Shown in pieces: positions 45,001-51,000 of a stretch of 64,000 nt of DNA. The position numbers are program-made. Position 1 is the first letter of the stretch; the number at the start of each line of letters is the position of its first letter. The DNA comes from Truepera sp. (GTDB lineage: Bacteria; Deinococcota; Deinococci; Deinococcales; Trueperaceae), in the NCBI GenBank assembly GCA_965218435.1, contig CBDCKW010000005.1, forward strand, positions 480,001-544,000. Reading direction: 5' to 3'.

Positions 45001-48000
45001 CTTTGGCGGCTATATCGTTTTTGGCTTTGAGGAACTAGGTATTTACATTCTCGAAAGCAAAAACTACGGGAACGCAACCTATGTCTTCAAATCGAATTGG
45101 GAAACGCTTTCACAGATGACCAAAGCTGAAATCCTCAATCAAGACCTGCACTATGCCCGTCTCGTTCACCGGACGAGTTGGGCCGAGCAGCTTCGTAAGC
45201 TCCTCCGCGACAACGGCTACGGAAGTGCCGATGAAAAGGTGGCCGCGTAATGAGCAAGAAAACAGACCGTTCGGTGTACCGTCGCTCAGACGGTACATGG
45301 GTCAACAAGCAACACGGCAATAGCAATGCGTCGAGTGTTCACGACACCCAAAAAGCTGCAACGGAGGCAGCACGCAATATGCTCGTCAACCAGGGCGGCG
45401 GAGAGCTTAATGTACATGGTAGAAACGGGCAGATTCGCTCGAAAGACACCATCGCACCGGGTAACGATCCGTTTCCGCCAAGAGACATCGAACACTAGCT
45501 AACAGAGCAATGGGGTAGCCGTCCATTAAATACGACGGCTACCCTCATTTTATGTTAGGTACTAATTGAGACAGTTTAGCTAAAAACATTTGATAGCTTG
45601 ACGCGACTACAAAGTAAAAGCGACTTTGTTGAAAGGATATTGAGACCGATACTTTCATCAGTCTGCTTCAAGTAAAGCTGTCCACCAACCTAGATTCGGC
45701 TCTCTGTGCCCCGGCTTGAAATTTCCACCAATCTGCACATCAAGAAGTACTTCTCGAAGCGCTTCTGCATCAAGTTGAACAGCTTCCGACCACCTCTTAA
45801 GTAAGCCGATGCTTGTCATGACTGAAATGTCTGGCGCTCGCGCTGTAATTTCTCTAATGGCTTTACGGTCATCGGTGACGAATGCCCCGCCTCGCAAGAT
45901 GACAGCCGCGATAGTTTCGGCCTCTCCCTGATCCAAGCTAGCGGCCAAGTCGATCAGCGCCTCTAGCTCTTCGTCCGTGGAAAGCTCAGGTTCGAGATGG
46001 AGGCTACCCGAGGTTAGAGCAGCAGCCAAGTCAACTGAAACGGGTGAGCCTCTCGCCATACCCTTGCGTTCGTAAACGTAAAGCGCCTCTTCATGGGCAA
46101 CCCACGGGGTAACCAAGAACTCGAATTCCAGAACCTCCGCTATTTCCCCGAGTCTCTTCGTGGCGTACAGATTGAGCAGCGCACAGGAGTCTAGATACCA
46201 CCGCTGACGCACTAACGATTCCTGACCGTGATCGCTTCCTCGACGGGCAATGGTGTCCAACCTTGATGTCCCTCTTCGTCGAGCGTAAATTGATGGCGAA
46301 ACTCTTCAACGACGTCTCTAGCTAGCAATCGGTTGACACCGAGAAACTGTGCGAGTTGACCTTCGGTGATCTCCTCTTTAAGAAACGCCAAGACTGCAAG
46401 GAGCCGGTAGCGTTCCGGCAGCATGGGTTCTTCGGATAGAGATTCCGTCGTTACTCCGGCGATCTCTTGAGCTTTTCTAACCTTGAGGCCGTCTGCCTTA
46501 AAGCCGTTGACCGTACCGTTCGTAAGTACGCCCATTTCCTCAAGCCTGTAGCCGTAAGCTTCAAACGAAACGCCGTAGTACCGGGCAAAGCGTAAAAGGT
46601 CTCCGAGCGTGAAGTCACCGGCAGTTTGAATATGGGAACGGAGTTGGCGGCGTACCCCACTCTCGGGCAGCAAGAACCTCGAGGCAAAAGCATTCGCAAA
46701 CCGTTCAGACTCGGGATAGCGGTCATAGCTTCTCAGAACCTGTATCTCTGGGTTCATGCGGTTCGTAAGAAAATGTCCATACTCATGCGCTAGAGTCATC
46801 CGCTGCCGGTCGGCTGGGTGCTTGCGGTTGATCGCAATACATCCCCCAAGTTCGTCGGTAAAGCCAAACATCCCAGCGATCTGCGAAGGTAGATCGAGGT
46901 AAAAGATTCTGAGACCGACTTCCGTTTCTAGTAGAGACCGAAGCTCCCCAATGGGACTGTCGCCAAGGTTAAGACGAACCCGCTCCTGTTTAGCGATCTC
47001 GTCAGCAGCGATCTCGACGGGCATACCCGAATACGAATACTCCGCTGGGTAACGTTTGGGCATGGCTGAGCCCATCATAGTTTCGAGCGTCAGGTAGTTC
47101 TCTGCATACTTCTGGAGTAAAGCAACGGCCTGTTCGACCTCGCTTTCACCTACAACGTCCAAAAGCCTCTTCTCAAAGCGTGCGCGGAAGGCGACACTAA
47201 GATCCCCGGTTGGAACCGGACGCCGCAAAAGCATATTCAAATCCTGCTCATAAAATCCAGCAAGCTTCGTCAGGTCGCTGGGCGTTAAGCGTCGCTTCCC
47301 CTGCTCAACGGCGACGAGCGAGGTGCGGGCAATCTCTAGAACCCCGGCAGCATCCTCTTGCGTTTTACCTGAAGCTTTTCGGGCACTCTGAAGTCGCTTA
47401 CCTAAGGTGACCCAATCGATACTTTTTAAGTCAAAAGTCAAGGCCCGACTCCTCTCTATGTAACATGGCTCGGCAGACGCGGCAAGGTCGCCGAAAACCA
47501 CTCCCATTCACAAACGTAGGTTGTAAACAGCTTAACAAGCTCCTCCGTTACCTCCTGGATGGTCAGGTTGGTTGTGGCGGCGATGGCCATCCTCGCGCTC
47601 ATCAGTTCGGGGAACTCACGTAAAAGACTGGCGAACTTGGCTTTCACGTTCTCCTCATCAAGTGCGTAGCGTAACCGCTCAGCCTGGGTCTCCATGCAGT
47701 GTAAAGGCAACAACTTGATACTGTTAGAAGTGCTCGGCACCGTATGATATACGTCCGTTTCATATGTCTTTTGGTCTCTATCTAGGCTTTCCAAGTTGCC
47801 AGCAGCTAGAGATACTCTTCTTAAAAGGCACGACGTACAGACACCGCACTGCTCTTTTGATCTGGGTTTCCGGCGAGGGAAACCGTCGCATGAGATCGTC
47901 TGAACGGCAAGGTCGCCGAAACCTCGCTCCTGCACCTCAATACACATCTGGCCTTTGGTCTTCCACAAAGATGGGTTTTCAATCTTGATGGGCGTCTCGA

Positions 48001-51000
48001 ATAAGTTAGAGGCAAGGGCAGCCATCCGCCTTAGCCCTTCAGGATGCATGGCACGGGTGTAGTCCACGCCTAGACCCGAGACCGTCTGAGGCAAGTTGAT
48101 CGCTCCCACGCCATTTTCGTAGACGTTGAGTGTACTCAGACCAAGAACGCGCGCGACCGAGATGCCGAGTGCCAAAAAGAGAAACCCCCGCGAGCGTTGG
48201 GTTCGCTCTTGTTCCAAACGCCCCTTGCTATAGGCATAGGAGATCGCCTGTTGATCGAGGTGATGATGTAGTGGAACATGGATCAGCTTTTTGCCATCTC
48301 GCTTTAATTTTCGGTTCGTCGCCTCTAAAATCTCACGCTGACGAGTGAAAAGATTGCCGCCGGTGTACGAAGCAACCAAAACACCCGTATCGTGCCCAGG
48401 AATATAGATTTGGCTGACAGCTCCGGCAAACGAATCCAGACCGCCGCTAAACAACCCTACAAACGAACAATCCACCGGCTCATCAAAAAGTGGAACTGCT
48501 ACGCTTTCCGACTCAAGGGGAGCGAACTCGAAAGACCAGGTGTCACCTGTAAAAAAGCCGAGTGCCGCTTCTAGACTCTGTTGCAGGTGAGGTTGCGCCC
48601 AGAAACTACATTTTCTTACCTTCACCTTAAGCTTGAACACTCGACCCGTCATGGCAGTAGCCCAGTCATCCGGGTGGCCGGGCGAACGAGGCGTGATACG
48701 GTCCGCTACATATGCGGCCATAGCGACATCGAGCAGATCTTTTTCAGCTTCTGGCAAATGTGTCATTAGCGTGTGTTCGACGGTGGTCGTATCAATACTT
48801 AGGGCTCGAGCGTCAACCTGCACTGCATCCGTAAAAGACTGCTGCCAAAAAGGATGAGCAAAGTCAATCATCGTTTTCCTCAAGGTCTAGCCCGATAGCA
48901 CTCCTATTGATTCCAAGAGAAACGCTGACCAACTCAGGCTGCGAAGGTTTCTGGTACTTAGGGCGACGGATAGGGGTAATTTTTGGCTTGTCGGAGTTTT
49001 TAGCTAGTTCCTTTGCAGTGGCTTTAAGTTCATCCCGTAACACTTCCTCGCAAGCTCGAAGCTCTTTTTGGGCTTCAGTAATGTCCCTATAAATGTCTGG
49101 CACCCCCCTCACACCCAAAACACCCAAACAATAGACCCGTGGGACTTCGACGCAAAATTCTTCGCATAAGCGTTCTCTAACTTCATCTACTGATTTAGGT
49201 TGCTCTGAGGAAATAAGCATTTCGGCCCAAGCACGCTCTGCTGCATGTAACCTTCACGGGCTAGTTCACTGTTCACTGGGGGTTTCAGCGTCGCCCCCAA
49301 ACGCTCTTCTAAAGGAAGTTGCACAAGTTGCGAGAGCTGCTGCGTCAAAGGTTCCAAAAACTTTGAGCCCGAGGACTTACCCAATTCTTTAGACGTTATA
49401 TGTGCAAGGTACTTCGCTAAGAATTTAGGCCCTTTACGGGCAGCCCTGTATGCCCCGCGCCATCCTTTAGGTAGTGACCTAGATAAGTTATCGCGATCAG
49501 GCATTCACAAGCCTCCTACTTGAAAATACTGTAAATGTCGAAAAATGTCAATTTTTATAGTTTAATTTACTCTTAATATTTGACATTGACAAGTCCTGAT
49601 CAGCAGTAATTAAAATATGCCGAACTGAACAGTTCGGCATATTTCATATTGTGACCCTGGAGAGGTTCGAACTCTCGACCTTCCGTTAGTGGTGCCAAGT
49701 TGAGGTACTGCCCCTCAAAAAGTCTTTGAACTTGACTCATACGGGTGCTCTATCCACTAAGCTACAGAGTCGTATCTACCTTATGGCTATTTTACAGCTA
49801 ATTCGTGCTGAATGCAGTTCCGTAGACATCAAGAAAAGCTGCTGCCCGGTAGCGTTGATGTGTTTACCCGGTACCGCCCTGTCCGGTTCGCCGCGGGCTC
49901 GAGCCCCTCGAGCTGCCCCAGCGCGACGAGCCGTTGCAACGCCTCTGCTGCATTCCGGTGCGAGATGCCCAGCAGCCCCTCGAGCTGCCTGACCGATACC
50001 TCTACCTCACCGTAAGGCTCGAGATAGAGATAAACGAGCTTCGCTGTCTGATTCTCCGCTAGCAACCGTTCGGGGAGTGCCAGCGCCTGCACCTCGGGCT
50101 GACCACCTGGTGAACCGCTCGAGGCCCCTACTGGTGTCCCTCGGCTGTTACTGAGCCCAAGCCCCCGCAACCTCTTGAGTGAGAGCGAAACCGCCCCCTG
50201 GGAGATACCTAATGCTCTGGCAATCTGCCGTTGAGAATAAGCCACAAGCTGCCCGGGCTCTAGCCAGAGGTAAAGCAGTTTAACGATAACGCTCTCGTTT
50301 TTAAGCTCGGCAAGTATAGGGGTCAGCGTGGCGAGTTCGGGGATACCAACTTCCTTTCTTCTCCCCTGTCAGCTGTGGTGCGCGCACCACAGCTGACAGG
50401 GGAGCTTCAGAGTTTACTACATGGGTAAAGGGTTCGTATTGGCGCTAGAACCGGGGAAAGGGTTTAGTATTCACCCATTAGCATGACCACGCGCTCTTGT
50501 CCATTCTGCTGGAGGTAGAGCTTGATCTGCTCGAGCGGAAAGTCCGTCCAGGGGATGCTCTGCTCGTGGTAGCTGGTTTGGGGTTCGCGGCCATCATGAA
50601 TGACGACGGCGGCGCGGCGGTTGTCTTGGACGCTCAGCTCGAGGACAGCAAACTCGTCGGTAACTTTGGGCAGCACGCTCCAGATGATGTCCAGCAGCCA
50701 GTACGCCCCGGCTTCGTCGGCTAGGTATTTCGCGCCGTCGGTCGCCAGCAGGCCGGGGTGCGTTCGGTGGTAGCGTTCGGTGCCGCTGAACTGTGCCAAA
50801 TTCCTGCACAGCTCGTCGGAAGTGGTGGGGCGCTTCATCGCGCCCCCTCCGGTTCTTGTTGCAGTTCGTCTAGGGTGTCGCTCTCGGCGGCGTTCAGCTC
50901 AGCCATCAGCGCCTCGAGATCAGCTTCGCGGTCGGCCCACACCTCGATGTCCAGGGGAAGAGTAAAAGGGGGCGTCATGCCACCCCCTCCAAGACTCTCT

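Follow-up and report, generated by a model that had tools for sequence, protein, structure and literature searches.

Canonical QatB proteins carry the N-terminus Met-Gly (MGTS in E. coli and P. aeruginosa). An N-terminal QatB peptide with an NDG modification has been reported, and the exchange G2D kills canonical QatB (both in the consulted part of PMC13639016). QatC is characterised by an SGGxDS P-loop, a Cys/Zn motif CGxCxxC..RR and so-called cluster-2 motifs (PMC13329287, consulted part). RmrA of the RosmerTA system is described as a protease antitoxin that frequently has an HTH domain at its N-terminus and is associated with PIN-like domains (PMC10440598, consulted part).

Here, we describe a locus in which relatives of QatC and RmrA are encoded side by side. 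The window, i.e., the whole stretch of 64,000 nucleotides from Truepera sp. that was analysed, contains five ORFs between positions 45658 and 49504, all on the minus strand and all confirmed as real by the ORF reading. From 5' to 3' on this strand, the features are as follows.

49523–49551, minus strand: promoter-like site 5' of the first gene, TTGACA-17-TATTTT, 10/12 matches
49249–49504, minus strand: 5' part of the gene at the QatB position (MPDxD family; ORF 49187–49504, 105 aa), N-terminus MPDRD, frame lost at the deletion site; family HMM positions 1–70, E 1.1e-10
49248–49249, no strand: site where a 10-bp deletion interrupts the QatB-position gene, from the comparison with metagenome contigs
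48864–49248, minus strand: 3' part of the QatB-position gene (ORF 48864–49220, 118 aa) in the -1 frame; family HMM positions 100–208, E 2.4e-12
47456–48871, minus strand: QatC-like PP-loop ATPase of the QueC family, 471 aa, PADLOC QatC 2.9e-49, apparently intact
46212–47507, minus strand: RmrA-like protein of 431 aa with HTH (XRE) and M78 (ImmA/IrrE) metallopeptidase, by Pfam and PADLOC, and a region of about 100 aa C-terminal to them
45658–46212, minus strand: PIN-domain nuclease, 184 aa from the GTG at 46212 (ORF 45658–46260), by AF2 and Foldseek; Q95 in this copy

The ORF of the QatC-like protein spans 47456–48883, its real start being the ATG at 48871. This ATG falls within the final codons of the 3' part of the QatB-position gene, the stop of which overlaps the QatC-like start. 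The ATG of the first gene is preceded by AGGAGG. The TTGACA-17-TATTTT site is a weak candidate for the promoter of this gene, as three sites of this type with 10/12 matches were found in the region versus 2.5 expected by chance. Each cassette gene occurs in a single copy in the Truepera genome, and the cassette is situated in a low-GC island together with other truncated mobile and toxin genes.

The QatC-like protein is a member of the QatC family by its profile match and by a match of its clade to solved QatC: a clade profile with the window protein as first row retrieves the chains 9vlk (1.1e-53) and 9zee (1.3e-48), while Pfam QueC reaches 21.7 bits on the window protein, just below the cut-off of 22. 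The signature motifs are present. Invariant in the clade alignment are S142 G143 G144 L145 D146 S147 (SGGLDS), C328, C342 G343 C345 C348 and R351, and furthermore E252, T305 K306 and D57/R62/R77.

The third gene encodes an M78 (ImmA/IrrE) peptidase with an N-terminal HTH, a domain layout frequent in RmrA. Pfam assigns Peptidase_M78 (2.2e-22) and HTH_31 (2.3e-10), and 15 PADLOC RmrA models match (best 8.5e-25), as does capP (2.4e-18). The RmrA models outscore capP and also span the HTH; capP covers the peptidase part only. Within the family, the HExxH...E site (H241, H245, E268) is invariant. The family alignment shows a conserved C-terminal region of approximately 100 aa beyond the peptidase, and the last ~100 aa lie outside most RmrA models.

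No Pfam family was matched by the ORF of the fourth gene. Its AF2 model (pLDDT 97.6) finds VapC4 (5h4g, E 5.4e-4, probability 1.0) as top Foldseek match, and each of the top ten is a PIN protein (probability 1.0). In sum, the database matches of the first-pass annotation were reproduced for all three proteins (PADLOC QatC, RmrA and capP, Pfam HTH_31 and M78, PIN fold). It had also listed D8, E42 and D114 of the PIN protein as invariant and D95 as nearly so. This is correct for D8 and D114, and D95 is conserved to at least 90%, but E42 likewise reaches at least 90% rather than invariance. The window protein itself has D8, E42, Q95 and D114 at these positions and thus lacks one of the four acidic residues of the putative active site.

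The linkage of these genes was analysed in the best 80 of 513 QatC-seeded loci, with the downstream genes sought by tblastn. An M78 gene is located downstream in 51 and a PIN gene in 50 of the 80 loci; the previously described linkage therefore recurs, but with these counts instead of 64 and 61. L014, the sole linked locus without a tblastn match for PIN, has a divergent 182-aa ORF at its place. The order MPDxD protein, QatC-like, HTH-M78, PIN is found in 51 of the 80 loci, and the record titles of the linked loci name eight phyla, in agreement with the earlier claim of at least eight. Median intergenic gaps are 18 nt (partner to QatC), 1 nt (QatC to M78) and 6 nt (M78 to PIN). A conserved fifth gene was not found in 49 cassette loci, the contexts of which are varied. 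These observations support the four genes as a conserved, tightly packed unit, and the cassette is common in soil bacteria.

The QatC tree separates 49 linked rows, together with L023, whose contig is cut, from 28 unlinked rows, and both groups have an SH-aLRT of 100. The QatC proteins of the four-gene loci form their own clade, and this clade is never found without the M78-PIN pair (51 out of 51 loci with room). Thirteen of the other loci had been taken for canonical qat; however, 0 of 70 neighbouring ORFs in the loci lacking M78 match QatA or QatD.

The reverse dependence does not hold. Among PIN-seeded loci, M78 is present in 58 of 58 with room. QatC is present in 30 of the 40 that have room for it, although in two of these 30 it is a remnant of 96 nt. 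QatC is thus missing or a remnant in 12 of 40 loci, where the M78-PIN pair is intact; DEDD in PIN and HEHE in M78 are kept by all 40. Since the pair persists in this way, it needs no front end for its maintenance. The dependence is shown to be one-way: the pair survives without qatBC-like genes, whereas every locus of the QatC clade with room has the pair. These data point away from the initial interpretation, which implied QatBC as the core and put the M78-PIN pair in place of QatA/QatD. An 80-aa MPDGD stub is left in L119 and a remnant of the partner gene in L131. The M78 tree places the loci lacking QatC at scattered positions, requiring 7–10 changes, which points to repeated loss of the qatBC-like genes as the origin of standalone pairs. 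Within the phylum of the window, three of nine other strong PIN matches lack QatC; all three belong to one genus, and two of them have a stop codon in PIN.

We favour, with about even confidence, a reading of the cassette as a Rosmer-type HTH-M78/PIN toxin-antitoxin defence core with a dependent QatBC-like front end, and infer a functional wiring between both halves. Two independent systems may instead travel together, a self-sufficient QatBC-like defence core and an ordinary addictive HTH-M78/PIN toxin-antitoxin pair, which share an operon for co-inheritance or stabilisation of the island. This would be in agreement with the standalone pairs, which are intact in 12 of 40 PIN-seeded loci and also occur in one genus of the window's phylum, as well as with two published points: ImmA-type antitoxins with PIN are already a predicted toxin-antitoxin class (PMC10440598, consulted part), and QatBC alone was reported as sufficient for defence in P. 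aeruginosa (PMC13279940, consulted part). Independence is less easily reconciled with a QatC clade that is accompanied by the pair in every locus with room, with genes that abut or overlap (median of 1 nt between QatC and M78), and with groupings common to the QatC and M78 trees (L037 with L055; the window with two Deinococcus loci). Moreover, the standalone pairs nest within four-gene clades and are associated with deletion remnants, and thus resemble decay products and not a free pool of toxin-antitoxin pairs. We consider independent systems possible, but doubtful.

The gene at the QatB position is located directly upstream of the QatC-like gene, with a median gap of 18 nt and an overlap in the window. 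Its family comprises helical proteins of about 210 aa with the N-terminus M-(P/A/T)-(D/E)-x-D. At E 1 or better, PADLOC QatB matches none of 42 members, and the family profile finds no QatB chain among solved chains at E 10 or better. With the all-helical model (pLDDT 84.7), Foldseek returned nothing at E 0.001 or better, and the top match in VIA-align is unrelated (Z 8.5), with no QatB chain among the matches listed. A weak profile match (hhalign, probability 89.6%, E 1.9e-6) links the family to the partner family of the sister clade. The previous designation as QatB-like can thus be retained in terms of position and this weak match, but not in terms of a sequence match to any QatB model or solved QatB chain; judged by sequence, the partner is QatB-like only in this limited sense.

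Position 2 of the partner is P in 33, A in nine and T in two of 46 upstream ORFs of at least 170 aa, the remaining two having no motif; in 21 metagenome loci, P occurs nine and A twelve times. Only D5 reaches 90% among the N-terminal motif positions in the family alignment. P2 had been called invariant and D3 conserved to at least 90%, which does not stand, and the proposed modification of Pro-2 in place of Gly-2 does not hold with A and T at the same position. An N-terminal Met-Gly is absent from the 44 readable partner N-termini, all of which have P, A or T at position 2. Given the D at positions 3 and 5, often with P at position 2, and the inactivation of QatB by G2D, the N-terminal chemistry of the partner may differ from that of QatB.

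If the front end indeed serves the toxin-antitoxin core, the following course is conceivable. The HTH-M78 protein would silence PIN and autoregulate the operon. The QatC-like enzyme would modify the partner N-terminus with ATP, once Met is removed, by analogy with QatC acting on QatB, and the M78 protein would read the modified state of the partner. Peptidase activity of M78 would then free PIN, which would cut RNA and abort the infection. A more specific version is a rather unlikely proposal: a nucleobase-type adduct on the P/A/T N-terminus of the MPDxD protein could be the ligand that activates the M78 peptidase, as ssDNA activates CapP and IrrE, and thereby releases PIN. If true, this would be the first protein-nucleobase conjugate acting as trigger of a toxin-antitoxin effector, and it would give QatBC chemistry a readable output.

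A different role of the HTH-M78 protein appears improbable, namely that of a fused CapH/CapP-like switch triggered by DNA damage or ssDNA, with PIN as the QatBC effector in place of QatD and without toxin-antitoxin neutralisation. CapP, a peptidase activated by ssDNA, cuts the repressor CapH (PMC13228613, consulted part), the window protein matches capP and has an HTH domain, and a capP-like gene occurs just upstream of the L002 cassette. Yet the regulator is located within the operon, 3' of QatC and abutting PIN, and not in a divergent upstream pair; RmrA models score above capP and include the HTH; the pair stays intact where there is no QatBC to regulate; and the conserved C-terminal region of the M78 protein would be left unexplained.

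The first-pass annotation had noted the frameshift in the QatB-like gene and left the choice between a dead copy and an assembly error. Metagenome contigs of two runs hold 10 additional bases behind position 49248. In one sample, two runs yielded contigs (depths 50 and 275) identical to the window sequence, including the deletion. Because two metagenomic relatives carry the 10 extra bases, the split is a real 10-bp deletion and the copy degenerate. The frame 3' of the deletion is shifted by -1 and open from just past the deletion site, and both halves match one family HMM (1e-10 and 2e-12). In addition, the PIN protein of the window has Q at position 95, where 46 of 47 other alignment rows and 40 of 40 metagenome loci have D. 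From its conservation, D95 is probably catalytic, and the PIN nuclease of the window is probably dead. Of 98 conserved columns, the M78 protein departs from the consensus at 16, a count that is equalled but not exceeded among the 47 rows; the QatC-like protein does so at two of 85. With the partner gene broken and Q95 in PIN, the cassette of the window is probably dead; the deletion, Q95 and the many M78 substitutions at conserved sites together mark it as decaying.

A broken copy in a low-GC island with truncated mobile and toxin genes would also fit an element without any role in phage defence, i.e., a factor of plasmid or island maintenance or a regulator of RNA turnover, of which only a pseudogenised remnant is present in this genome. 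We regard this as very improbable, since all three recognisable families include defence members, 13 of 24 loci scanned have known defence genes next to them, and the genomic contexts are varied, with no other conserved neighbour. The flanking genes were counted from cassette loci alone: at E 1e-15 or better, PADLOC matches 17 of 102 flank ORFs, the 17 being spread over these 13 loci, including Septu, PD-T4-6, BrxL, type I RM, Avs4 and HEC-06. The capP-like gene upstream of L002 is a separate gene. The combination of QatBC-like genes with HTH-M78/PIN was not found described in the literature searched, and the cassette looks like an undescribed layout of phage defence.

Compared with QatABCD, the cassette shares a QatC-like protein in which PP-loop, Zn-Cys cluster and QatC-specific motifs are preserved (solved QatC at 1e-53), as well as a helical, translationally coupled partner gene directly upstream with a small residue after Met-1. 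It differs in the lack of QatA (KAP NTPase) and QatD (TatD nuclease), consisting only of partner, QatC-like, HTH-M78 and PIN genes; in a partner of about 210 aa that starts with M-(P/A/T)-(D/E)-x-D instead of MG and matches no QatB model; and in a separate QatC clade, whose module has HTH-M78 and PIN downstream in every case.

RosmerTA (RmrA/RmrT), including the NetFlax ImmA node (D25) with PIN-like toxins, has in common with the cassette HTH and M78 domains with an intact HExxH and 15 matching RmrA models. A toxin-type gene abuts the HTH-M78 gene, and the two-gene pair can stand alone; published work already associates this antitoxin node with PIN-like domains (PMC10440598, consulted part). 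In contrast to RosmerTA, the pair stands behind a QatBC-like module in approximately 70% of PIN-seeded loci, a combination not found in the literature searched, and the C-terminal ~100 aa of the HTH-M78 protein extend past most RmrA models.

Type IV CBASS, with deazaguanylation of CdnD by Cap9, likewise employs a QueC-family enzyme on the N-terminal tail of a partner encoded next to it (PMC13279940, consulted part). The cassette, however, has neither CD-NTase nor Cap10, and Cap9 is described as short and as keeping the QueC active site (PMC13329287, consulted part), whereas the cassette enzyme is QatC-like. CapH/CapP, IrrE/DdrO and ImmA/ImmR also team an M78 peptidase with an XRE-type HTH, in line with the capP match of 2.4e-18; unlike CapH/CapP, the cassette has both fused in one 431-aa protein, within the operon and beside a nuclease, with no divergent regulator pair. 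VapBC, finally, shares the PIN fold, and D8/E42/D95/D114 are conserved across the cassette PIN family. The cassette PIN falls outside all Pfam PIN families, exceeds its VapC matches by about 40 aa, and has a 400-aa HTH-peptidase as its partner instead of a small VapB.

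The cassette at 45658-49504 of the window comprises five ORFs arranged head to tail, all on the minus strand. They represent four genes, as the first gene, a partner in the position of qatB, is split into two ORFs:

49187-49504, minus strand: 5' ORF of the partner gene, 105 aa, N-terminus MPDRD
48864-49220, minus strand: 3' ORF of the partner gene, 118 aa, in the -1 frame
47456-48883, minus strand: QatC-like ORF, with the ATG at 48871 as likely start (471 aa)
46212-47507, minus strand: HTH-M78 ORF, 431 aa
45658-46260, minus strand: PIN ORF, for which the GTG at 46212 gives 184 aa, a length aligning with relatives

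The ATG at 48871 falls within the final codons of the upstream partner ORF. The first gene is preceded by an AGGAGG and by a promoter-like site (10/12 matches), a kind of site that does not exceed chance expectation in this region. The G+C content of the cassette stretch is 48-54%, compared to 67-69% at 40.5-42.5 kb.

The family assignments of the first-pass annotation were reproduced. The QatC-like protein matches the PADLOC QatC model (2.9e-49) and reaches 21.7 bits with Pfam QueC, slightly below the cut-off of 22. A profile of 39 relatives finds the solved QatC structures 9vlk (1.1e-53) and 9zee (1.3e-48), and the P-loop SGGLDS, the Cys cluster and other QatC-specific motifs (motif list from PMC13329287) are invariant in the alignment. 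The HTH-M78 protein carries the Pfam domains HTH_31 and Peptidase_M78 and is matched by 15 RmrA models (best 8.5e-25) as well as by capP (2.4e-18); its residues H241, H245 and E268 are invariant among 47 sequences. No Pfam family matched the PIN protein. Its model (pLDDT 97.6) has PIN proteins as all ten best Foldseek matches, the first being VapC4, 5h4g (E 5.4e-4, probability 1.0).

With the QatC-like alignment, one genome per species was scanned; this gave 513 relatives, of which the best 80 were kept. Among these, tblastn places an M78 gene directly downstream of QatC in 51 loci and a PIN gene after it in 50; in L014, the single linked locus without a tblastn PIN match, a 182-aa ORF takes the PIN place and shows the family motifs by eye. 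The genes are tightly packed: the median gap is 18 nt between the partner gene and QatC, 1 nt between QatC and M78, and 6 nt between M78 and PIN. Record titles assign linked loci to Acidobacteriota, Verrucomicrobiota, Chloroflexota, Gemmatimonadota, Deinococcota, Nitrospirota, Deferribacterota and Cyanobacteriota. No further gene is common to the flanks, the best candidate being an integrase-like ORF at 6 loci. In the Acidobacteriota locus L002, a separate capP-like peptidase gene (4412-5194, plus strand, E 1.1e-52) lies directly upstream of the four-gene cassette. The cassette and its recurrence, as observed in the first-pass annotation, are largely confirmed.

A quick tree search with 78 QatC rows, leaving out the broken genes of L058, L070 and L079, separates 49 linked rows plus L023 from 28 unlinked rows (SH-aLRT 100 for both groups). 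The contig of L023 stops just past QatC, and the locus is therefore unscorable for linkage. QatC has a median length of 619 aa in the 29 rows in which no M78 gene was detected (L023 included), as opposed to 462 aa in linked loci. The sister clade (28 loci within L039-L078, e.g., L039:5145-7779) encodes a QatC of about 620 aa, whose C-terminal extension is unassigned, and upstream of it a partner of about 260 aa that starts with MGHxRLG. Several genes downstream are primase-helicases of the D5_N/DUF5906/VapE type. Loci of this kind had been taken for canonical qat systems, a designation that does not hold, as no match to QatA or QatD was found among 70 neighbouring ORFs. None of 20 sister-clade partners matched the QatB models, and a PDB profile search with the alignment of these partners returned nothing. 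The sister clade appears to be a third QatBC-like layout, made up of two genes and carried on mobile elements.

The search seeded from PIN changed the reading of what is core and what is accessory in this cassette. At E 1e-30 or better, the PIN family holds 637 representatives (50% identity clusters). With a pattern from a 12-row PIN alignment, 395 metagenome loci were found. Among the best 80 of these, M78 is present in all 58 loci with room for it and QatC in 30 of 40, two of the 30 occurrences being 96-nt remnants. In L119, the 3' end of QatC is joined to an 80-aa MPDGD stub, and L131 retains part of the partner gene. Whether QatC is present or not, a full-length PIN with D-E-D-D and an M78 with H-E-H-E are encoded in 40 of 40 loci. 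A tree of 58 M78 rows disperses the 13 that lack QatC, nesting them inside four-gene clades, a distribution that requires 7-10 changes. Within the phylum of the window, a strong PIN match occurs in 10 of 364 genomes including its own; six of the other nine have the full set, and three, all of one genus, have M78 and PIN without QatC. The M78 protein of this trio is 62% identical to that of the window, and the PIN gene carries a stop codon in two of the three. Intact pairs and scattered losses of QatC show that the M78-PIN pair is autonomous and was retained after repeated loss of the QatBC-like front end. The converse, a QatC of the linked clade without the pair, was never seen in the loci examined (best 80 of 513). 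The earlier interpretation, which centred the system on QatBC, is partly supported, and core and accessory are probably reversed relative to what it assumed.

The partner proteins form an all-helical family of about 195-225 aa (model of the Deinococcus rufus homologue, L016: pLDDT 84.7). The N-terminal consensus is M-(P/A/T)-(D/E)-x-D; MAADGD, MASDSD and MPTDGAD are among its variants. The first-pass annotation had described Pro-2 as invariant and Asp-3 as conserved in at least 90%. Here, the 44 readable genome loci have Pro (33), Ala (9) or Thr (2) at position 2, and the 21 metagenome loci have Pro (9) or Ala (12), with a P/A swap as the sole difference between close relatives among the latter; within the motif, only D5 reaches 90% conservation. 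Pro, Ala and Thr are small residues that allow removal of the initiator Met by methionine aminopeptidase, and the partner may thus have a free N-terminal amine. The hhalign comparison with the sister-clade partner gives a probability of 89.6% (E 1.9e-6, 163 columns). None of 42 family members matched the PADLOC QatB models, the PDB profile search with the family alignment found only designed helical proteins and no QatB chain, and neither Foldseek nor VIA-align listed a QatB chain for the model. The links to QatB are weak, and "QatB-like" therefore describes a position and an analogy rather than a demonstrated membership.

A partner HMM built from 46 upstream ORFs of related loci matches the first ORF of the window over positions 1-70 (1.1e-10) and the second frame over positions 100-208 (2.4e-12). 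Since both ORFs match different parts of one model, they represent a single, broken gene. An assembly error had been considered for this break. When public contigs were compared across 48000-49600, the contigs from two runs of a single sample, at depths of 50 and 275, were identical to the window, although both may be the source of the assembly itself. After 49248, relatives from a lichen and a rock metagenome have 10 additional bases. The loss of 10 bp yields exactly the observed -1 offset, and on this comparison the split is a genuine deletion rather than a homopolymer error. Programmed -1 frameshifting was rejected as well: no slippery heptamer is visible, and relatives differ by the 10 bp instead. 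Neither the partner gene nor the QatC-like gene has a second copy in the genome.

Further changes affect the remaining genes. Position 95 of the PIN protein, which judging from conservation is probably one of four acidic active-site residues, is Q in the window, D in 46 of 47 other aligned proteins and D in 40 of 40 further metagenome loci. Of 98 conserved columns, the HTH-M78 protein deviates at 16, a count equalled but not exceeded among the 47 rows, and three of these columns are invariant in all other rows; the QatC-like protein deviates at only 2 of 85. The window copy is decaying and pseudogenised. From the 10-bp deletion, Q95 and the HTH-M78 substitutions, it is probably no longer functional. 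One cassette gene is also split or shortened in L011 and L020 (M78 gene) and in L058, L070 and L079 (QatC); most of these are metagenome-assembled genomes, and either decay or an assembly error may be the cause.

The cassette lies in a lower-GC island at about 42500-52500 (48-56%, versus 67-69% beside it), which carries two MarR-like HTH genes and decayed mobile and toxin genes, among them the RES-domain ORF and the resolvase in this list of features:

43153-43494, plus strand: RES-domain ORF, N-terminally truncated
43567-43998, minus strand: resolvase without the first ~54 profile positions
44294-45250, plus strand: 318-aa ORF, no Pfam or PADLOC match
45250-45498, plus strand: DUF2188/PDC-S16
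49652-49771, minus strand: tRNA-like sequence
50464-50838, minus strand: DUF6876

The 318-aa ORF is convergent to the PIN gene, and its end coincides with the start of the PDC-S16 candidate, of which it may be the partner. Immediately upstream of the cassette, and in the same orientation, is the tRNA-like sequence, with a hairpin after it. The match to Rfam tRNA scores 47.5 bits, the full 71-position model extending over 120 nt, which indicates an insertion inside; ARAGORN called no tRNA in 40000-56000. This sequence may mark the insertion site of the island.

For the flanks of related loci, PADLOC was applied to 102 of 216 ORFs of at least 200 aa, those from the first 24 of 49 loci. At E 1e-15 or better, 17 of the 102 ORFs matched, an uncontrolled count spread over 13 of the 24 loci. 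The matches include PtuA/PtuB, PD-T4-6, BrxL, type I REase (twice), Avs4, SoFic, HEC-06, an HKD-Snf2 protein, PD-T4-5 and capP, among others. Such a share is probably far above the usual genome share of such genes.

This analysis shows the families, the gene order and the clades, together with the one-way dependence and the decayed state of the window copy. As a mechanism, we propose that the HTH-M78 protein would neutralise PIN and autoregulate the operon. The QatC-like protein may modify the N-terminus of the partner, whose modification state would then control the M78 peptidase and, through it, the release of PIN. In L115 (7084-7973, minus strand), a 104-aa ORF that starts 6 nt from the contig end and resembles only the last ~70 aa of M78 adjoins a PIN-like ORF of 188 aa in which the first catalytic Asp is missing. 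This gives a weak hint that the C-terminal region of the M78 protein might be the part that goes with PIN. As this QatC clade is always tied to a readable output, the proposed protease-controlled PIN, it could open both the reaction of QatC and the effect downstream of it to testing.

For the known Qat system, a widespread defence, the published record describes the QatBC complex as minimally required and the N-terminal glycine motif of QatB as essential (PMC13279940), and no ATP pyrophosphatase activity for QatC with CDG (PMC13376578). Only about 34% of the genes in the QatC cluster have qatA or qatD nearby (PMC13329287). Section 7 and the Table S2 queries of the same study do not mention an M78 or PIN partner of QatC; for cluster 2, these queries gave KAP_NTPase and TatD rows only, with no match there to PF06114, PF13560, M78 or "Peptidase". 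Neither QatC nor a peptidase is mentioned in a preprint on deazaguanylation. No paper combining QueC with PIN and M78 was found in the literature searched, and none of the matches listed (25 of 119) pairs QatC with PIN, M78, ImmA, IrrE or Rosmer. RmrA is described as a protease antitoxin, often with an HTH, whose antitoxin node associates with PIN-like domains (PMC10440598). The pairing of M78 with PIN thus already belongs to a predicted class. No publication among those searched describes the four-gene combination, which represents a system built from two known kinds, in which a Rosmer-type toxin-antitoxin pair can bear an optional, repeatedly lost front end.
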